Source of the DNA: Dehalococcoidia bacterium
GTDB taxonomy: Bacteria; Chloroflexota; Dehalococcoidia; SM23-28-2; RBG-16-64-32
Reading direction: 5' to 3'
NCBI GenBank assembly: GCA_963665775.2
Contig: CAXXTF010000002.1
Span: 1,107,231-1,171,230 of the forward strand
Length of the DNA: 64,000 bases
Below the pieces are notes generated by a model that searched no databases, had not been told where the DNA came from, and saw only the letters and a program-made list of their open reading frames with translations. This document shows, piece by piece, positions 2,646 through 62,540 of this stretch; the first letter of the stretch is position 1, and each line of letters starts with the position of its first letter. Made by a program: the position numbers and the translations under genes.

Positions 2646-3236
2646 CTATTCCTCACCCGCTCTCGCTCGCCCGAAGTAGCTCAGGGCCAGGCGCACCTTC
2701 TCCTCCACCGGAGCGTCCGGCGGCAGGTCGCTCTTGGCCACGGCCTCCAGCGCCTCGGCCTGGGAGTAGCCGAGGCCGATGAGAGCGGAGACGACCTCGG
2801 ACTCCTCGCCGGGTAGGGCCGTCGGCACCCCTGAGACCAGCTTGTCGCGGAGATCGAGGACGATGCGGCCGGCCAGCTTCTGACCGACGCCCGACGCTCG
2901 GGCCAGGGCAGCGGTGTTGCCGGAGGCGATTGCATAGGAGAGCTCATCGACGGTCATGACAGAGAGTAGAGCCAGGGCGGCCTTGGGACCGACGCCGTTG
3001 ACGCCCACGAGGGCCTGAAAGAGCCGCTGCTCGTCGGCTGAGGAGAAGCCGTAGAGGGTCATGCCGTCCTCGCGGACGACCAGGTGGGTGTGTAGAGTGA
3101 CCTCGGCGCCGCTGCGGGCGTGGGCGAGGGTGCCGCTGGGACCGTAGACGAGGAAGCCGACACCGCCGACATCGACGATAATCCAGTCGGGCCCGCGCTC
3201 GATGACGGCGCCTCTGAGGCGGGCGATGGGGCTCAT
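2646..3236 (-). CDS. ruvA: Holliday junction DNA helicase subunit RuvA
   Basis: The 196-aa ORF reads IARLRG...GVGFLV...FGF.....F..L..V.GVGPK.AL, followed by the helix-hairpin-helix region. It lies directly downstream of ruvC. Confidence 0.9.
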   Translation of the reverse strand: MSPIARLRGAVIERGPDWIIVDVGGVGFLVYGPSGTLAHARSGAEVTLHTHLVVREDGMTLYGFSSADEQRLFQALVGVNGVGPKAALALLSVMTVDELSYAIASGNTAALARASGVGQKLAGRIVLDLRDKLVSGVPTALPGEESEVVSALIGLGYSQAEALEAVAKSDLPPDAPVEEKVRLALSYFGRARAGEE

Positions 3237-9568: not shown

Positions 9569-10384
9569 CTATCGCTGACACCGGGGGCAGAAGTGGGTGC
9601 TGCGGCCGCCCACCTTGACGCGCCGGATGGGGGTGCCGCAGTCGTAGCAGGGCTGGCTCGTGCGTCGGAAGACCCGCACGTGCAGCTGATGCATGCCCTC
9701 CCTTCCGGCGCTGTCCACGTAGTCGCGAAAGCTGGAGCCGCGGTTGCCCATCGCCTCGACCAACACCTGCCGGATAGCGGCATGGAGACGGTCGCTCGCC
9801 TGCCTGGAGAGGCCGCGGGCGGCGCGCCTGGGGTTGATCCTGGCGACGAACAGGGCCTCGTCGGCATAGATGTTGCCGATACCGGCGATCGCCGCCTGAT
9901 CGAGGAGGACAGACTTCACGGGAGCCGAGCGCCGCAGCAGCGGGCGCAACTCCTGGGGTCCGAACTCCTCGCCCAGCGGTTCGGGGCCGAGCTTACCGAC
10001 GACCATAGACTCGTCGTCCACCAGCCACATCATGCCCAACTTGCGCAGGTCCCGGTAGCAGAGCCAGCTACCGTCATCCAGGCGGAAGCGAGCGCGCAGG
10101 TGCAGGTCAGCGGGGCAGCCGGAGCTGCTGTACTGGAGGGAGCCGGTCATGCGCAGGTGGACGACCCAGACGAGGCCGCTGGCCAGGCGGAAGAGGAGGT
10201 ACTTGCCACGGCGGGCCACGTCATCGATGCGCTGGCCGGACAGGACGCGGCAGAGCTCTTCCGGCGGCAGAAGCTGGACCAGCTTGGGGGCGTCCGGCGA
10301 GACCCTGGCCTCCACGATCGTGCGGCCCAGGATGAGGGGCATTAGGTCCCGCCGAATCGTCTCGACTTCGGGGAGCTCAGGCAT
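9569..10384 (-). CDS. mutM: formamidopyrimidine-DNA glycosylase
   Basis: MPELPEVETIRRDL N-terminus and a C-terminal zinc finger (CYDCGTPI...HFCPRCQ). Confidence 0.9.
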   Translation of the reverse strand: MPELPEVETIRRDLMPLILGRTIVEARVSPDAPKLVQLLPPEELCRVLSGQRIDDVARRGKYLLFRLASGLVWVVHLRMTGSLQYSSSGCPADLHLRARFRLDDGSWLCYRDLRKLGMMWLVDDESMVVGKLGPEPLGEEFGPQELRPLLRRSAPVKSVLLDQAAIAGIGNIYADEALFVARINPRRAARGLSRQASDRLHAAIRQVLVEAMGNRGSSFRDYVDSAGREGMHQLHVRVFRRTSQPCYDCGTPIRRVKVGGRSTHFCPRCQR

Positions 10385-10439
10385 CTACGCTTTTCGGGCG
10401 ACGAAGTCGTCCTGCGCGTAGCCGCCGGAGGGGTCCACG

Positions 10440-13310
10440 CTACCCGCCCATCTCCTCGATGCCGGAGGGCTCTCCGTACTCCATCTCACCCCAGTTGCGG
10501 CCCACCTTTGTGTCCACCTTCAGGGGAACGAACATCTCCATCGACTTGGGCATTATGTCGAGGACGAGGGCGCGAATCTCCTCCAGCTCCTCCTGGGGGC
10601 ACTCGAAGATCAGCTCGTCGTGGACCTGGAGCGTCATGAGAGCGCGCATCTTGCGGCGCTCCATCTCGGCGTCGATGCGGCTCATGGCGATCTTGATGAT
10701 GTCGGCGGCCGTGCCCTGGACCGGCATGTTGATAGCCGCCCGCTCGGCGGCCTGGCGGACGTTGAAGTTGCCGGAGCTGATCTCAGGCAGGTAGCGACGG
10801 CGGCCGAACAGGGTCTCCGCGTAGCCCAGCTCGCGCACCCGCTGGACAGTCTCCTCCATATATCGCTTGATGCCGGGGTACTTTTCGAAGTAGGTACGGA
10901 TGAACTCGGCCGCCTCCTCGCGGGGGATGCGCTCGCGGGTGGAGAGGCCGTACTCGCTGAGGCCGTAGAGGACACCGAAGTTGAACACCTTGGCGCGGCG
11001 GCGCATGTCGGACGTGACCTCCTGGAGGGGGACGCTAAAGACATGGGAGGCGGTCGTGGCGTGGATGTCCTCGTCGCGGAGGAAGGCCTCAACGAGGCCG
11101 GGGTCCTGGGTTATGTGAGCCATGATGCGCAGCTCTACCTGGGAGTAGTCTGCGGAGAGGAGACGCGGATCGGGCCCGACATCACGGGCGACGAAAGCGC
11201 GGCGAATCTGGCTGCCCAGCTCGGTGCGGACGGGGATGTTCTGGAGGTTGGGGTTGCTGGAAGAGAGGCGCCCGGTGGCCGCCCCCGTCTGGTTGAAGTC
11301 GGTATGGAGGCGGCGAGTACGAGGGTGAACGAGGTCGGGAAGGGTATCCAGGTAGGTAGACTTGAGCTTGGTCAGCTCCCGGTACTCGTAGATGAAGTCG
11401 ACGATGTCGTGCAGGCCACGCAGGCCCTCCAGGGCCTGGGCATCGGTGCTGTAGGCGCCGCTCTTGAGATGACGGGTCTTGGGCAGGTGCAGCTCCTCGA
11501 AGAGGATGTGGCTGAGCTGCTGGGGCGAGCTCATGTTGAACTCGTGGCCGACGGAGCGGTAGATATCCTCCTCAATGCGGCGAACCTCCAGGGCAAGAGT
11601 CTCCGACATCTCCCGCAGCGCTCCCCTGTCGATGGCGACACCGTTCATCTCCATGCGGGCGAGGATGGAGACGAGCGGCATCTCGATCTCCTGAAACAGG
11701 CGGCGCATCCCCTTCTCCTCCAGCTCGGGCTCGAACAGGTCGCGGAGCCGGGCGGTCATGTCGGCGTCGGCGCAGGCGTAGCGGGCAGACGTCTCGATAT
11801 CGACCTGATCCATGGTAAGCTGCGTGCCCTTACGGCCGCTGCCCAGGAGGTCGGAGATCGGGGTCATCTCGACGCCCAGGCGGCTGGAGGCGAGCCACTT
11901 GAGGCCCAGGGCACCCTGGCCGGGGCGACCGCCGCCTTCGCCCAGGAGATAGGCGGCGATCATGGTGTCGAAGGCGACGCCACGGGGCCAGACGCCGTGT
12001 TGGGCCAGAACCACGATGTCGTACTTGAGGTTGTGGCCATCGAGGCGAACCTCCGGCTCCTCCAGGAGGGGGCCGAGGCGTCCCAGGACGGTGGAAAGCG
12101 GTAGCTGACCATCGCCGGCGTGGCCCACGGGCAGGTAGAACACCTCGCCGTCGCCGAGGCCGATGGAGATGCCCACGAGGTCGGCGCGCATGGCGTCGAT
12201 ATCCGTGGTCTCGGTGTCGAGGGCGAACCGCTTCTGCCCGGCGATGCGCCCGGCCAGCGCGTCCAGCGCTTCCTCCGTGCGGACGGTGGAGTAGCGCTCC
12301 TCCGGGGCGCCGGCGGAGGCGGGCATAGCCCGGGCGACCTCGCTGGCTGCCGCCCCTTCTGGCACGCGGGACGCGAGGCTGCGGAACTCCAGCTCCCTGA
12401 AGAAGTCTAGGAGGCGCTGGCGATCGTAGTGGGCGGCGACGTCCGCGCCATCAAGATCGAGCTGCACGGGCGCGTCCATGACGATGGTGGCTAGGAGCTT
12501 GCTCTGACGCAGTTGCTGCTCGCCGGCACGAATGGCGCCCTCGATCCTCGCCGGCTGCACGTCGTCGATCCGCTCCAGAATCGCCTCGACGCTGCCGAAC
12601 TCCTGGATCAGCCTGATGGCGGTCTTCTCGCCGACACCGGGCACGCCAGCGATGTTATCGGATGCATCACCCTTCAGGGCCTTGAGGTCTGGCATCTGGT
12701 TAGGCATGACGCCGTAGCGCTCAGCCACATCATCGTCGGTGAGGTAGAGCACGTAGTCGCGCTGATAAGGGCGGTACATCCAGAGTTGAACGCCGGGCCC
12801 GACGAGCTGGGCGATGTCCGAATCCAGGCTGACGAGGGTCGTGTCGACCCCTTGTTCCGCGGCCTGGCGGGAGAGGGTACCCAGGAGATCGTCGGCCTCG
12901 TAATCCGCCAGCTCGTAGATGGGGATGCCGAAGGCCTCGATGAGCTGGCGGCAGCGTCCCATCTGAGCACGGAGCTCGTCGGGCATGGGCGGGCGGTGAG
13001 CCTTGTAAGTCTCGGTGATCCGGTTGCGGAATGTGACCTCGCTAAGGTCCATGGCGACGGCGACGTGAGTGGGCTTCAGCTCCTGGAGGACGGAGAGGAG
13101 GGTGCCGGCGAAGCCATAGACGGCGGAGACCACTTCACCCGTACTCTTGACGGTGAGGGGCTGCGCCTTCTCAAAGGCGTGGAAGGCGCGGTGAATAAGG
13201 CCATGGCCGTCTATGAGTACGAGGCGGGCCTCAGCTTGGGGGCTCACGAGGCGATTATAGCACCGCGGGCGAAGCCGGCACTTCATCACCGCCGTCGCAG
13301 GCAGCGCCAA
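10440..13310 (-). CDS. polA: DNA polymerase I (5'-3' exonuclease, 3'-5' exonuclease-like and polymerase domains)
   Basis: LVLIDGHGLIHRAFHA (5' nuclease), FALDTETT, and Pol A motifs (LLSADYSQVELRIMAH, QVHDELIFE). The real start is probably the in-frame GTG at 13247 (VSPQAEARLVLIDG), not the ATG at 13310. Confidence 0.9.
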   Translation of the reverse strand: MALPATAVMKCRLRPRCYNRLVSPQAEARLVLIDGHGLIHRAFHAFEKAQPLTVKSTGEVVSAVYGFAGTLLSVLQELKPTHVAVAMDLSEVTFRNRITETYKAHRPPMPDELRAQMGRCRQLIEAFGIPIYELADYEADDLLGTLSRQAAEQGVDTTLVSLDSDIAQLVGPGVQLWMYRPYQRDYVLYLTDDDVAERYGVMPNQMPDLKALKGDASDNIAGVPGVGEKTAIRLIQEFGSVEAILERIDDVQPARIEGAIRAGEQQLRQSKLLATIVMDAPVQLDLDGADVAAHYDRQRLLDFFRELEFRSLASRVPEGAAASEVARAMPASAGAPEERYSTVRTEEALDALAGRIAGQKRFALDTETTDIDAMRADLVGISIGLGDGEVFYLPVGHAGDGQLPLSTVLGRLGPLLEEPEVRLDGHNLKYDIVVLAQHGVWPRGVAFDTMIAAYLLGEGGGRPGQGALGLKWLASSRLGVEMTPISDLLGSGRKGTQLTMDQVDIETSARYACADADMTARLRDLFEPELEEKGMRRLFQEIEMPLVSILARMEMNGVAIDRGALREMSETLALEVRRIEEDIYRSVGHEFNMSSPQQLSHILFEELHLPKTRHLKSGAYSTDAQALEGLRGLHDIVDFIYEYRELTKLKSTYLDTLPDLVHPRTRRLHTDFNQTGAATGRLSSSNPNLQNIPVRTELGSQIRRAFVARDVGPDPRLLSADYSQVELRIMAHITQDPGLVEAFLRDEDIHATTASHVFSVPLQEVTSDMRRRAKVFNFGVLYGLSEYGLSTRERIPREEAAEFIRTYFEKYPGIKRYMEETVQRVRELGYAETLFGRRRYLPEISSGNFNVRQAAERAAINMPVQGTAADIIKIAMSRIDAEMERRKMRALMTLQVHDELIFECPQEELEEIRALVLDIMPKSMEMFVPLKVDTKVGRNWGEMEYGEPSGIEEMGG

Positions 13311-24865: not shown

Positions 24866-25720
24866 CTAGGGGCGCCGGCCGGTGGCCCAGATCTCTTTCA
24901 GTATCTCCAGGTTCTCGCGGTCGGGACCCTGCTTGGCGAATCCTGGCACCTCTAGGAGGAAGGGCACGTCCGCGAAGGCCGCGTGGGCCATGATCTTCTC
25001 GAAGCCGCCGCGGCCGATGTGACCCTGGCCAATGTTCTCGTGCCGGTCGACGCCACCGCCCAGCGGACACTTGGAGTCATTGGCGTGAACGGCTACCAGC
25101 CTCTCCAGGCCGATCTCCCTATCGAACTCCGCCATGGCGGCTTCCAGCCCGGCCTGGGACTTCAGATCGTAGCCGGAGGCGAAGGCGTGCTGGGTATCCA
25201 GGCAAACCTTGACCCGCGGGCTACCGGCCTCCCGTATAATGGCGGCCAGCTCGCCGAACTTCGAGCCGATGGCGTCGCCCATGCCGGCGCTGTTCTCCAG
25301 GATGAGCCAGACCTCCTCTGGCGTGGCCGCGATGATCCCGCGGACGGACTCCACAACCTGACCAAACACCTCATCGTAGCCCCTACCACGGTGGCTACCG
25401 ATGTGGAAGATAACGCCCGTAGCGCCCAGCAGGTGACAGACCTTCATGTCGTGGACGAGGGCCTCGCGGGACTTGGCCAGGTTCTCCGGGTTGCCAGTGG
25501 CCAGGTTCACCAGATACACGCCGTGGAGGAAGGTGGGGGAGATGCCGGTCTCCTCCACCCTGGCCGCATAGGCCTGCACCTCGTCCGGCTTGTACTCCTT
25601 ACGACGCCAGGCCTGAGGGGCACCGCTGAAGATCTGAACCGCTTCCGCGCCTATCTCCTGCGCGCGACCGATGGCCTTATCGACCCCGCCAGAGGCGGAG
25701 ACGTGAGCCCCTATCTTCAT
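24866..25720 (-). CDS. nfo: deoxyribonuclease IV (endonuclease IV, AP endonuclease family 2)
   Basis: MKIGAHVSASGG N-terminus and a TIM-barrel AP endonuclease layout (HGVYLVNLA, IFHIGSH, ILENSAG, CLDTQHAFASGYD). Confidence 0.9.
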   Translation of the reverse strand: MKIGAHVSASGGVDKAIGRAQEIGAEAVQIFSGAPQAWRRKEYKPDEVQAYAARVEETGISPTFLHGVYLVNLATGNPENLAKSREALVHDMKVCHLLGATGVIFHIGSHRGRGYDEVFGQVVESVRGIIAATPEEVWLILENSAGMGDAIGSKFGELAAIIREAGSPRVKVCLDTQHAFASGYDLKSQAGLEAAMAEFDREIGLERLVAVHANDSKCPLGGGVDRHENIGQGHIGRGGFEKIMAHAAFADVPFLLEVPGFAKQGPDRENLEILKEIWATGRRP

Positions 25721-26040
25721 CGTCGTCTCCTGGCCAGGGATGGGGTTCGGGCCAGAAGGCCGCGAGCCCAGGGGAGAAATACTTTATCCTGCACAGCTTC
25801 AACCGCCTCCTCGTCTGTCAGGCCGAAGCCGGCCCGCACCGTCGCTATCCCCATCCCCAGGTCGACTTCCGCCGACGCCGCACCGGGCAGCCCGTCCAGG
25901 GCCGCTCTCACGCGACGCGCTCATAAGCCACATATCATCCCCCGCACCTGAAGGCGAAGGGTCTGCCCTTTCTCATCGGACTCCAGGGATATCACCTGGG
26001 CTTCCGGGAAGACGAACAGATTACGGAGCCTGATGGACAT
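25717..26040 (-). CDS. heavy-metal-associated (HMA) domain protein with an in-frame TGA at 25923..25921; candidate selenoprotein (CxxU), or a nonsense-disrupted gene
   Basis: The ATG at 26040 is preceded by the SD GGAGGTG and a TGGTATAAT box. Translation gives ...TLRLQVRGMICGL[TGA]ARRVRAALDGLPGAASAEVDLGMGIATV...EEAVEAVQD. This follows the HMA pattern GMxCxxCxxxVxxALxxxxGVxxxxVxL, with the TGA at the second Cys. The stop overlaps the nfo start (ATGA). Confidence 0.55.
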
Positions 26041-26043
26041 CAG

Positions 26044-26068
26044 CACCTCCAGTGGACCAATTATACCA
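26044..26068 (-). promoter_or_regulatory. extended -10 box and Shine-Dalgarno of the HMA-nfo unit
   Basis: Minus strand reads TGGTATAAT (26068..26060), then GGAGGTG (26050..26044), then CTG, then ATG (26040). Confidence 0.45.
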
Positions 26069-26648: not shown

Positions 26649-27971
26649 GTGGCTGCTCCTAGACCCTGGCTCCCGCTCCTGGCCACAGCGGTGACGCTCC
26701 TGGTGCTAGCCTGCAACGGCAACGGCACATCTCCCTCGGCAACCCCCTCACCATCAGCGACGCCCTCCCCCACCCTCACCCCTAGCCAGTCACCCGGCCG
26801 TGGCAACACCAGCGAAGGCCAGCAGTTTGACGGCGAGGCTGCGTTGGCCCACATACGAGCCCTGGCCGTGGAGATCGGCTCCCGTCGCAGCGGCAGCGAG
26901 GCGGAGGCCGCCGCAGCCAAGTACATCCACGAGCAGCTAGACGGATACGGCTACGACACGACCTTACAGGAGTTTAGCTTCGACGCCTTCTTCGACATCG
27001 GGACGACCCTACAGGTGACCTCGCCGGACCAGCAAGCGATCGACGCTGTCCCCCTCGAGCCGAGCATCAGCGGCCTCGCCGAGGAGCATCTCGTGGCCGC
27101 CGGGCTGGGCCGTCCGCAAGAGTTCCCTACGGAGACGGCCGGCAAGATCGCCCTCATAGAGCGGGGCGACATCTTCTTCAGCGATAAGGGGATCAACGCC
27201 GCCGCGGCGGGGGCCGTAGCCGCTATCATCTTTAACGACGAGCCGGGCCCCTTTGCGGGAACCTTACGGGACGACGTTACCATTCCAATCGTGGGCATCT
27301 CTCGGGAGGACGGCCGGAGGCTCCTCACCCTACTCGGCTCGGGTCCCGTTTTCGTGCGCCTGGACGTGCTGACCGATTCCGGCTCCCAGCCTTAGCAAAA
27401 CGTTGTAGCGAAGCCGCCAGGAGGCCAGTGCCAGGTCATCGTGGGTGGGCACTACGATTCGGTGCCGGCCGGGCCGGGTGCCAACGATAATGCCTCGGGA
27501 ACGGCGACGGCGCTGGAGATCGCCAGCGTGCTGGCCGCCGACGGCGAGCTCGATGACGTCTGCTTCGTCCTCTTCGGGGCCGAGGAGGTCGGCCTCATAG
27601 GAAGCGGCGCGTTCGTCAGGTCACTCTCCCCGGACGAACGGAGTGACGTACAGGGCATGCTCAACTTCGACATGGTGGGGGCGGGAACCGACTGGCTTCT
27701 GTCAGGCTCCGATGAGCTACGCGATCTGGCCGCGGCGGAAGCGGATCGTCTGGGCCTGGTGTACCAGACTTCCGGCGGTTTGCCGGCCGGGGCAGGCAGC
27801 GACCACGCCCCCTTCATCCAGGCGGGCATTCCGGCCATCATCTTCCACCGGCTGGGCGATCCCCACTACCACACGAACGAAGATACGGCGGGGTTCATTC
27901 AGGTGAACTTTCTCGAGGAGATCGGCACCCTGGGCCTCGCCGTCCTTGACGCGCTGCTGATGGGACGGTAG
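26649..27971 (+). pseudogene. M28-family aminopeptidase lipoprotein with a PA domain, interrupted by one in-frame TAG (27393..27395)
   Basis: The listed ORFs 26649..27395 and 27441..27971 are in the same frame. Read-through gives ...DSGSQP[TAG]QNVVAKPPGGQCQVIVGGHYDSVPAGPGANDNASG..., the contiguous M28 core. A lipobox (LLVLAC) is at the N-terminus. Confidence 0.7.
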
Positions 27972-59939: not shown

Positions 59940-62540
59940 GTGGTAACAAGCGATCTAGCCAGCCCAGCTCATTCCCCGACCAAGTTGGGGGAAGGGAAGA
60001 CGATCCCCAGCGTCTGCCACCTGTGCGTCTACGGCCAGTGCGCTACGCTGGTGCACGTCGTTGACGGCGTGGCAGTAAAGATAGAGGGGAACCCCGAGGC
60101 GCCTCACAACGAGGGGAGGCTCTGCCCGAGGGGGAACTCAGCCATCATGGAGCTGTACGACCCCTACCGGGTCAAGGTGCCGATGAAGCGGACCAACCCG
60201 GAGAAGGGGCTGGATGTGGACCCCAAGTTCGTGGAGATCAGCTGGGATGAGGCCCTGGACATCGTGGCGGAGAAGCTGCGGGCCGTAAAGGAAGAGGATC
60301 CCAGACAGTTCCACTCCAGCGGAGGAATGGCCGGGGGCGGACTTGCGCGGGGGAGGTTCCAGTCCTTCTTCGGCGGAGCACCGATGCACATGTTCGGCGG
60401 GGTGGCGGCCTGCGGCAGTTCAGAGCACGCCGTCTCTACCTGGGCCCACAACGGCCACGTCTCAGGATACGATCCCGACTACGTGGAGCTGCTCATCCTC
60501 CAGGGCACCAACGCCGGCTTTGGCACCTGGCTGGGCGGCGCCGCCGGTGGCGGCGTGAGCCGGCTCGCGGACGCCCGGGCGGAGCGCGGTACCAGGATAG
60601 TGAGCATCGACCCCCGGTGCGGGGAGGGGGCGAACAAGGGCGAGTGGATACCGATAGTTCCTGGCACTGACCTCGCCTTCAACCTGTCTATGCTGCACGT
60701 GATCCTCCATGAGATGAACCAGTTTGACGTGGAGTTCGTGAAGCTCCACACCAATGGCCCCTACCTCATCCAGCCCAACGGACACTACCTGAAGGATGCT
60801 GACGGTAAGCCCTTGGTGTGGGACGCGGATCTTCAGGCGACTAGACCCTTTGATGACCCGGAGATCAAGGACTTTATCCTCGAGGGGTCTTACGAGATAA
60901 ACAGCGAGTCCTACAAGACGGCCTTCCAGATGCTGAAGGATCGGATGGCGCCGTATACGCCGGAGTGGGCGGAGAAGCTCACCACGGTGCCGGCTGCCCG
61001 GGTAAGGAGCCTCGCCGCCGATTTCGTGAAGACGGCGAAGATCGGGGCGACTATCAAGATAGACGGGGTGGTGCTGCCCTATCGACCGGCGGCGATGATC
61101 GGCTATCACGGCTCAACGCGACACTACAACGGCCCCTACACTACGATGGCCCTGCGTCTCATCAACTGCCTCATGGGTAACTACGACGTGCCCGGCGGCA
61201 ACAAGGGGATGCCGGAGATCGCTGCCCACCCGGAGATATATGACATGCCTCCCCAGACAGACGGCATGCTGGAGTTCATCCCTCCGTCAGAGATCAAGTT
61301 CCCGCCGGATCCAGACCTGAAGCAGTTCTACCCACTTGCGGTCGACTCCAACATAGTGTGGTTGAACTGGACCCAAAAGGACGCTGCGATGCGGGAGAAG
61401 TTCAAGATCCCGTACAACCTCAAGGTCCTCTGCCTGGGAGGCACGAACCCCTTCCGGAACCAGGGCGATCCCCGGCACACCGAGGAGATGATGAGGGCCA
61501 TCGACTTCATCTTCACCGTCTCCGTGTGGATCGATGACCCGGCCCTGTTCGCGGACGTGGTGCTTCCAGAGGATTGTGCTCCGGAGCGGCTCGAAGTACA
61601 CAAGTACAACGCTATGTTCCAGATTGGGCTTCAGGGGACCATGTTGCGCCAGCCGCTCGTGGGGCGCCTTTACGATACTCGGCATACCGACGAGATGGTG
61701 ATAGAGCTAACCGAGAAGCTGGGCATGCTGTACGGCGAAGGCGGCTACATCGACTTCTTGAATAGGACTCTCGGTGGTTTCTCGAACTATGTCCAGGACG
61801 CCGGGCCCGCAGAAGGCGATGGACTCCTGGACATTCACAAGAAGCCCACTTTGGAGGAGGTCGTCGACGCGAGGCTTAAAGCAGCGCGGGGCCAGGAGAA
61901 GGGGGTGGAGTGGTTCAGGGAGAACGGCTTAGAGTTCGACAAGCTCCCGGTCGAGAAGGATTACCACTGGGCACCCCTATCCGGGCGCCGCTTCCCCCTC
62001 TACTTCGAGCCGGTGAAAGAGTTGGGTGACTTGCTGAAGAAGAAGATCAACGAGGAGTACGGATGGGACTGGGACACCTCCTGGTACGACGCGCTACCAC
62101 GCTGGGAACCATGCCCAGAACATGATACAGAGAAGTTCCCTCCGGACTTCGATCTGTATGTTATGAATTACAAGACGCCGTTCAACACCAACAGCCAGAC
62201 CGGTGCTAACCCCTGGCTGAGTGAGGTGTTCGAGGCTGACCCCTACTTCCTGCGGCTCTGGATGCACGAGGAGACAGGGAAGAGAAAGGGGCTTCGCGAC
62301 GGCGACAAGGTCTGGATCGAGTCGACCATGGCGAAGCTGGAGGCGCGCGTGAAGCTGAGCCAGACAGTCCATCCCCAGGTCGTCGCGGTCGGCGGCGCCG
62401 GGGGGAGCTGGGCCACCAGCCCCTTCGCCAAGAAGGGCATCAACTTCGCCAGCCTGCTGCCACAGACGCCGGAGCAGATCAACCCTATGCTCTGTAACCT
62501 CGATTGGTGCACGCGAGTCAAGATCACAGTACGGCAATGA
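59940..62540 (+). CDS. molybdopterin (bis-MGD, DMSO-reductase superfamily) oxidoreductase catalytic subunit, cytoplasmic; paralog 1
   Basis: N-terminal Fe-S motif CHLCVYGQC-x27-C (CX2CX4CX27C), EISWDEALDIVAEKL, and the MopB layout with a C-terminal beta-barrel (GDKVWIES...ARVKLSQTVHPQVV). No twin-arginine signal and no in-frame stop. Confidence 0.75.
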   Translation: MVTSDLASPAHSPTKLGEGKTIPSVCHLCVYGQCATLVHVVDGVAVKIEGNPEAPHNEGRLCPRGNSAIMELYDPYRVKVPMKRTNPEKGLDVDPKFVEISWDEALDIVAEKLRAVKEEDPRQFHSSGGMAGGGLARGRFQSFFGGAPMHMFGGVAACGSSEHAVSTWAHNGHVSGYDPDYVELLILQGTNAGFGTWLGGAAGGGVSRLADARAERGTRIVSIDPRCGEGANKGEWIPIVPGTDLAFNLSMLHVILHEMNQFDVEFVKLHTNGPYLIQPNGHYLKDADGKPLVWDADLQATRPFDDPEIKDFILEGSYEINSESYKTAFQMLKDRMAPYTPEWAEKLTTVPAARVRSLAADFVKTAKIGATIKIDGVVLPYRPAAMIGYHGSTRHYNGPYTTMALRLINCLMGNYDVPGGNKGMPEIAAHPEIYDMPPQTDGMLEFIPPSEIKFPPDPDLKQFYPLAVDSNIVWLNWTQKDAAMREKFKIPYNLKVLCLGGTNPFRNQGDPRHTEEMMRAIDFIFTVSVWIDDPALFADVVLPEDCAPERLEVHKYNAMFQIGLQGTMLRQPLVGRLYDTRHTDEMVIELTEKLGMLYGEGGYIDFLNRTLGGFSNYVQDAGPAEGDGLLDIHKKPTLEEVVDARLKAARGQEKGVEWFRENGLEFDKLPVEKDYHWAPLSGRRFPLYFEPVKELGDLLKKKINEEYGWDWDTSWYDALPRWEPCPEHDTEKFPPDFDLYVMNYKTPFNTNSQTGANPWLSEVFEADPYFLRLWMHEETGKRKGLRDGDKVWIESTMAKLEARVKLSQTVHPQVVAVGGAGGSWATSPFAKKGINFASLLPQTPEQINPMLCNLDWCTRVKITVRQ

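Follow-up and report, generated by a model that had tools for sequence, protein, structure and literature searches.

A candidate Cys-x-x-Sec protein of the HMA fold encoded upstream of endonuclease IV in Dehalococcoidia

The HMA gene upstream of nfo

The stretch of DNA analyzed here, called the window, comprises 64,000 nucleotides of a genome assembly from a Dehalococcoidia bacterium (GCA_963665775.2, contig CAXXTF010000002.1), and coordinates given without a locus name refer to it. On its minus strand, nfo, the gene for endonuclease IV, directly follows a short gene encoding a protein of the heavy-metal-associated (HMA) fold. The frame of the HMA gene is crossed by a TGA codon at the place of the second cysteine of the GMxCxxC metal-binding motif (Table 1) and translates as MSIRLRNLFVFPEAQVISLESDEKGQTLRLQVRGMICGL, a stop, ARRVRAALDGLPGAASAEVDLGMGIATVRAGFGLTDEEAVEAVQDKVFLPWARGLLARTPSLARRRR and a second stop. 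When the UGA is written as Cys, the Pfam model HMA (PF00403) matches residues 30-84 with 41.4 bits (cut-off 24.8; E=1.9e-10). An initial annotation of this DNA had described an HMA domain with the UGA exactly at the second Cys of CxxC, which this match bears out. The signals that it had listed around the gene (TGGTATAAT, GGAGGTG, the start ATG, the in-frame TGA, a hairpin and an ATGA overlap with nfo) all lie where it had put them, and the translation is the same.

The metal-binding loop reads G-M-I-C-G-L-UGA in the window and GM(V/I)C(D/G)x(U/C) in the family described below. The domain is preceded by an N-terminal extension (MSIRLRNLFVFPEA...) and followed by a C-terminal tail (KVFLPWARGLLAR...). 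In an AlphaFold model headed by the Cys homologue P0037 (predicted local distance difference test score, 81.6), the core superposes on the CopZ, MerP, Ccc2a, ZntA and NmerA domains at 1.3-1.7 Å over about 60 residues, and the target-normalised TM-scores against Cys-type HMA structures are 0.71-0.80. The N-terminal extension is modelled as an extra strand next to beta-1. Strand beta-4 of the ferredoxin-like beta-alpha-beta-beta-alpha-beta fold is not predicted; instead, the C-terminal WAR..LAR segment is modelled, with low confidence, as a helix, and the confidence of the tail is low as well. This tail is rich in Arg, Gly and Lys, partly because the ribosome-binding site of nfo, a Shine-Dalgarno sequence of the type AGGAG, lies within the last five HMA codons and makes them purine-rich (25717..25735 in the window, and likewise at homologous 3' ends).

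The promoter that had been proposed ahead of the gene is a putative one. The -10 element is present, and TATAAT or TATACT is found at the matching position in four homologous loci (L083, L084, L087 and L067). A two-hexamer promoter scan, on the other hand, did not call TGGTATAAT, a -35 hexamer being absent. Finally, a 322-residue open reading frame on the plus strand (24983..25951), antisense to both nfo and the HMA gene, was rejected as an artefact of GC-rich DNA; the strand opposite to it carries nfo with its own Pfam match (E=3.9e-50).

Table 1. Features of the HMA-nfo locus (window coordinates; both genes lie on the minus strand)
Feature	Position	Strand	Remarks
Extended -10-like element TGGTATAAT	26060..26068	-	putative promoter; no -35 match
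Shine-Dalgarno-like GGAGGTG	26044..26050	-	GGAGG core 5 nt ahead of the ATG at 26040
HMA-fold coding sequence	25717..26040	-	107 residues; proposed selenocysteine at codon 40 (M-I-C-G-L-U)
In-frame UGA, proposed selenocysteine codon	25921..25923	-	second Cys of GMxCxxC
SECIS-like hairpin GCGGCCC-UGGAC-GGGCUGC	25887..25905	-	begins 15 nt past the UGA; encodes A-A-L-D-G-L-P
Terminal stop TGA of the HMA gene	25719..25717	-	ATGA overlap with the nfo ATG (25720)
nfo, endonuclease IV (AP_endonuc_2)	24866..25720	-	Pfam E=3.9e-50; overlaps the HMA stop as ATGA, 25720..25717

The TGA column and the downstream hairpin among relatives

Within the species, the 64-residue open reading frame downstream of the TGA occurs on eight contigs from different samples, with the TGA in all seven that are readable. 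The sole variation inside the HMA frame is a synonymous TGT/TGC change at the first Cys. At about 99% identity among themselves, the copies rule out an error in the base call; on selection they are silent. The genetic code is considered standard since TGA is an ordinary stop in this DNA: it terminates 10 of the 28 confident genes of the window, TAG being the commonest stop. A global reassignment of TGA was therefore rejected.

More distant relatives were searched for exhaustively with HMMER, using the 67 residues after the TGA as the query and 1.84 billion cluster representatives as the database. This search gave 14 relatives, among them nine representative clusters of no more than 50% mutual identity that consist of fragments of 61-67 residues, and three that are full-length (about 105 residues) and carry CxxC. 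All nine fragments begin within one residue of the same point, a conserved Val located four codons past the TGA. A profile search enlarged the set to 38 fragment clusters and 18 full-length Cys forms belonging to the family; 35 of the 38 fragment clusters begin at exactly one column. In public databases the fragments (at least 38 clusters) measure 58-71 residues and bear names such as 'heavy-metal-associated domain-containing protein', 'copper chaperone CopZ' and 'hypothetical protein'. A k-mer protein search with the Cys-substituted protein matched only the 64-residue fragment of the species itself.

At all the fragment loci for which DNA is at hand (L083, L084/85, L086, L087/88, L089/90, L091, L092, L093 and L094), the column of the second Cys holds TGA, never TAA or TAG, and a conserved N-terminal half (MR.xLRNLF.RP.A ... 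GM.C..) is encoded upstream of it. Of these loci, L087 comes from assembly GCA_030649945.1 and L092 from GCA_022545505.1. The proteins of these nine loci, which together with the window copy are hereafter called Sec forms in reference to selenocysteine (Sec), are just 42-58% identical to that of the window. Across this divergence the protein is conserved on both sides of the TGA, without further lesions. Orthologues with a cysteine codon at the same column also exist: it is TGT in L067 and TGC in L097 and L098/99. At these Cys-form loci AcetylCoA_hyd_C or a promoter comes first, then the HMA gene, then nfo; the wider flanks, visible on long loci such as L098, contain genes for a carboxyltransferase, LysM, an M28 peptidase, sigma-70, LysR, ferredoxins and fatty-acid metabolism. 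The alignment of homologues that the initial annotation had called for thus gives TGA in 10 Sec forms and TGT or TGC in syntenic orthologues. The family is located in metagenome assemblies of Dehalococcoidia (Chloroflexota), where Sec and Cys forms share one chromosomal position. Moreover, the Cys forms P0011 and P0032 are 63-68% identical to Sec-type sequences as against 57% to any other Cys form, which points to interconversion of Sec and Cys within the family.

Some members depart from this scheme. In L096 (390-443 of a 678-bp contig, GCA_044345325.1), which belongs to the L089 subgroup, the Sec codon is replaced by TGG (Trp) with the hairpin intact; the TGG may stem from a sequencing error, mark a dead allele or represent a suppressor-like variant. 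In L086 (699-752) the spacing is one residue longer, C-E-W-G-UGA (CxxxU), and nfo does not follow. P0016, known as a protein only from an 849-bp NCBI contig, has 76 residues, the first 12 of which (MSAPGASGPFGK) are unlike the family and span the expected position of the UGA; a frameshift in that contig, or a fault in its assembly, probably accounts for this N-terminus.

Another in-frame stop is found on the plus strand of the window, in a PA/M28 peptidase gene (26649..27971), where a TAG at 27393..27395 lies 1.4 kb from the TGA of the HMA gene. The site is a conserved Ser (..SQNV..) in the relatives L087, L089 and L098, and the same TAG is present in L001-L003. From these comparisons it looks like a species-specific nonsense mutation, leaving a pseudogene or a split gene. 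Being confined to one species, it differs from the TGA of the HMA gene, which is spread across lineages.

Just downstream of the UGA, the mRNA can form the short hairpin listed in Table 1. Its core, GCCC-UGGAN-GGGC, does not vary among the 10 Sec forms and stands at an equal distance from the UGA in each of them; RNAalifold applied to the Sec forms gives seven base pairs. The two outer pairs are swapped between GC and CG in the lineage of L089/92/93, and one of them also in L091. The loop is UGGAN, or GGA when the U is paired. According to the published model, a bacterial selenocysteine insertion sequence (SECIS) has a loop of 3-9 nt with a G in its first two positions, a stem of 4-16 bp, a distance of 16-37 nt from the UGA and a free energy of at most -7.5 kcal/mol (PMC13188914). 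The hairpins of the family fall within all four constraints of this model (bSECIS), with a 5-nt loop N1-G-G-N-N2 placed 22 nt from the UGA, 5-8 bp in the stem, and free energies of -8.3 to -13.8 kcal/mol across all 10 Sec forms. Together with the invariant core, this upholds the suggestion made from the window sequence that the hairpin is compatible with a bacterial SECIS. Like the bacterial SECIS consensus (bSECISearch; E. coli fdhF-type), the hairpin lies in frame just past the UGA and carries G-G next to the closing N1 of a small apical loop; it has no sequence similarity to the fdhF or fdnG elements.

Codon usage argues for a constraint at the level of the RNA. Inside the hairpin, Ala, Leu and Gly are encoded by a single codon each (GCC, CTG and GGG) in 9 of 9 sequences, whereas all nine columns of invariant residues with degenerate codons outside the hairpin use 2-4 codons. 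Monomorphic codon columns thus number 3 of 4 inside versus 0 of 9 outside (p ~0.014, Fisher-type count). The hairpin is missing from Cys forms, where the corresponding codons are GGC CTC ATC CGT CTC in L067 and GGC CTG GAA GCG CTG in L098. With a covariance model built on the Sec forms, these score 63-74 bits and L096, left out of the training, 65.7 bits, as compared to 23.6 bits for L097, 15.2 bits for L098 and no hit for L067; since training sequences match by construction, the scores are informative only for L096 and the Cys forms.

Decoding of the UGA

These data favor the view, to which we give a probability of about 0.85, that the UGA is decoded as Sec by means of a SelB-type SECIS and that the resulting HMA protein, of the Cys-x-x-Sec type, is translated together with endonuclease IV. 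Taken alone, the sequence of the window would not be remarkable. It is the recurrence of the TGA, of its exact column and of the hairpin in diverged homologues that exceeds chance. Of the two readings offered by the initial annotation, a selenoprotein or a freshly inactivated gene, the former is the one that agrees with a TGA shared at 42-58% identity, with syntenic Cys orthologues and with a constrained hairpin. The HMA gene would accordingly be an intact selenoprotein gene, in which the in-frame hairpin would serve as a bacterial SECIS and recruit SelB, so that SelB with Sec-tRNA(Sec) would read the UGA as selenocysteine. The predicted product is a 107-residue HMA-fold protein with the loop G-M-I-C-G-L-U. 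Judging from fold and motif, its Cys thiolate and Sec selenolate may act as ligands of a soft metal ion or pair up in a redox-active selenenylsulfide couple. Ribosomes ending the HMA gene would then restart on nfo at the ATGA overlap, and both proteins would be made together.

The taxonomic setting is compatible with Sec decoding. Selenoproteins and tRNA-Sec are documented in Chloroflexi (PMC1794560, PMC5389517), and metagenome-assembled genomes of Dehalococcoidia have been described that carry 46-49 selenoprotein genes (PMC13326102). The window itself contains, at 59940..62540 on the plus strand, a gene for a molybdopterin oxidoreductase of the formate-dehydrogenase superfamily (Fe4S4, Molybdopterin and Molydop_binding domains). 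No in-frame TGA is found in this gene, which thus provides no independent sign of Sec use in the window.

Several observations weigh against decoding as Sec. The genes selA, selB and selD and the tRNA-Sec were not found in the 64-kb window or in the 10-kb loci that were fetched. As for the hairpin, the predicted folding of the 81-nt stretch that holds it (25850..25930) is not superior to that of its dinucleotide shuffles (z=+0.39); single-sequence folding is uninformative in DNA of 64-80% GC, and comparative analysis was used instead. At both gathering and permissive thresholds, Rfam matched neither the hairpin nor any SECIS or tRNA-Sec; it contains no bacterial SECIS specific to this gene. 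The four inner pairs of the stem are invariant and, as they never vary, give no covariation signal, while the compensatory changes in the outer pairs come from only two or three lineages. In the window copy, N1 and N2 of the loop are U and C, which are unable to pair. Lastly, part of the nucleotide conservation is driven by the protein because the hairpin overlaps the most conserved peptide, AALEGLP.

It can alternatively be proposed that translation stops at the UGA, releasing a 39-residue peptide, and restarts nine nucleotides further on at the GTG 25911 to give a 64-residue C-terminal protein, the two halves acting separately or as a non-covalent complex. Gene callers annotate precisely these two open reading frames, and such a split gene would also be expected to show conservation of both halves. 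Moreover, 9 of the 10 Sec forms use GTG for the Val four codons past the UGA (25911..25909), versus GTC in the three lineages of Cys forms. This excess of GTG is in part a sampling artefact, as fragments enter protein databases only with a start codon, and the GTG may be a fallback restart codon or part of a recoding signal. Against a split gene, GTA, not a start codon, stands at this place in L084/L085, where the half past the UGA is nevertheless conserved, and the fragments P0051 and P0052 are called from a later start. No purine-rich Shine-Dalgarno sequence lies between the UGA and the GTG. In addition, a stop exactly at the metal-ligand Cys would delete the ligand, the stop is always TGA though TAG is the commonest stop, and both the freeze of synonymous sites and the SECIS geometry of the hairpin would be left unexplained. 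We thus regard the split gene as improbable. Read-through of the UGA without Sec appears no less improbable: a near-cognate tRNA (Trp or Cys) would suppress the UGA, perhaps aided by the hairpin, and produce a selenium-free full-length protein. The TGG of L096, with its intact hairpin, would fit such a mechanism. On the other side, homologues have at this position a Cys that belongs to a metal-binding CxxC, as is classic for Sec/Cys pairs, and the loop and spacing of the hairpin match the SelB-type bSECIS model. A Trp in place of the metal ligand would be non-functional, and L096 is a single short contig, possibly an error or a dead allele. To our knowledge, no efficient programmed read-through of UGA of this sort has been established in bacterial genes.

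Inactivation of the gene is still less probable. A nonsense mutation from TGT or TGC to TGA would have been fixed in the species, nfo alone remaining functional; a single transversion is enough to turn the TGT of L067 into TGA, and a probable species-specific nonsense codon, the TAG of the M28 peptidase gene, is found close by. But the TGA is common to nine or more lineages whose proteins have diverged to 42-58% identity, other lesions are absent, residues are kept on both sides of the TGA, and Sec-type clusters exceed Cys-type ones (38 vs 18). The freshly inactivated gene, which the initial annotation had kept as its second reading, is for these reasons very unlikely. An error of sequencing or assembly at one base can practically be dismissed: the TGA is identical in eight assemblies from different samples and projects, which settles the doubt raised earlier about the base call, and it recurs in assemblies of other species. 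Decoding as Sec is consequently retained in what follows.

Known HMA families and a possible link to endonuclease IV

The closest selenoprotein-specific model is NF041115 ('UxxU_metal_bind'), to which five members of the family score 31.3-48.5 bits, below its cut-off of 95. Both are small stand-alone HMA folds in which Sec would occupy the metal-binding loop, including its second position. Nevertheless, NF041115 proteins have 74 residues and two Sec (UxxU) rather than one (CxxU), and they are devoid of the N-terminal strand and of the C-terminal WAR..LAR tail seen here. We know of no linkage of NF041115 to nfo. Sec within an HMA-type motif of heavy-metal handling proteins is likewise a feature of the TIGR01525 ATPase and of the NF045683 MerT/CopZ fusion; these, unlike the present protein, are membrane transporters or fusions, the Sec of the ATPase being at the first position (UxxC), and NF045683 scores at most 29 bits here for a cut-off of 375. 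With the Cys-type metallochaperones (CopZ, MerP, NmerA, Ccc2a and the N-terminal domain of ZntA), the family shares the GMxCxxC loop and, judging from the P0037 model, the core of a ferredoxin-like fold. It differs from them by a proposed Sec in place of the second Cys, by about 30 additional N-terminal residues with a strand alongside beta-1, by the helix and tail that the model predicts instead of the usual beta-4, and by its genomic partner, nfo rather than a P-type ATPase or mer operon. The CopZ/MerP equivalogs NF047957, NF033795, NF033794 and TIGR02052 give 52 bits at best, for cut-offs of 85-95.

No stand-alone CxxU family of PF00403 is present in an inventory of 2026 that counts 119 families and subfamilies of prokaryotic selenoproteins. 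Given this absence and scores under the cut-offs of all the NCBIfam HMA and selenoprotein models tested, the family is not placed in any named one, and from its sequences looks like an uncatalogued bacterial Cys/Sec selenoprotein family of the HMA fold. It would add an HMA-fold CxxU family to the approximately 119 already catalogued, from a class, Dehalococcoidia, that is rich in selenoproteins. The at least 38 database clusters now annotated as 'HMA domain' or 'CopZ' fragments would then be an annotation error, each being half of one selenoprotein. Finally, Sec and Cys forms at one chromosomal position would offer a natural test of what selenium adds to a CxxC loop.

The association with nfo extends beyond the window. 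nfo lies immediately 3' of the HMA gene in 8 of 10 Sec-form loci as well as in the Cys forms L067, L097 and L098, and an (A/G)TGA overlap with the nfo start, MK(I/V)GAHV, is kept in 8 of 10 Sec-form loci. The coupling to endonuclease IV put forward in the initial annotation is thereby found in most of the family. nfo does not follow in L086 or in the L091/P0046 subgroup. The latter, a 67-residue 'RRWLALLP' subgroup (L091:1166-1381, P0046), adjoins instead a convergent gene for a CDP-alcohol phosphatidyltransferase. A scan of GTDB species representatives with nfo gave 75 loci, with the HMA gene of this family upstream in one only (L067), and it is absent upstream of the closest nfo relative, L008.

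The conserved translational coupling suggests a functional tie between the HMA protein and endonuclease IV, and hence a link, unreported so far, between soft-metal or redox chemistry and base-excision repair. A more specific, and rather doubtful, possibility prompted by the gene arrangement is that the Sec-containing protein is a dedicated partner of endonuclease IV, produced stoichiometrically with it through the start/stop overlap. As such a partner, it might load or guard the trinuclear metal site of Nfo, or sense thiophilic-metal or oxidative stress on behalf of Nfo; we hold this equally tentative. If true, a selenoprotein would here act as the metallochaperone of a nuclease of DNA repair.

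Two further observations concern the surroundings of nfo. In two Tepidiformaceae genomes, classical copZ-like and copA N-terminal HMA genes lie divergently and directly upstream of nfo (L063:2538-2977 and L068:2530-2930, on the minus strand relative to nfo at 3001), so that nfo adjoins HMA-type metal genes a second time, independently of the present family. In the window, fpg (Fapy-DNA glycosylase) and polA are found at 9569..13310 on the minus strand, 13-16 kb from nfo, so that base-excision-repair genes are loosely clustered there.

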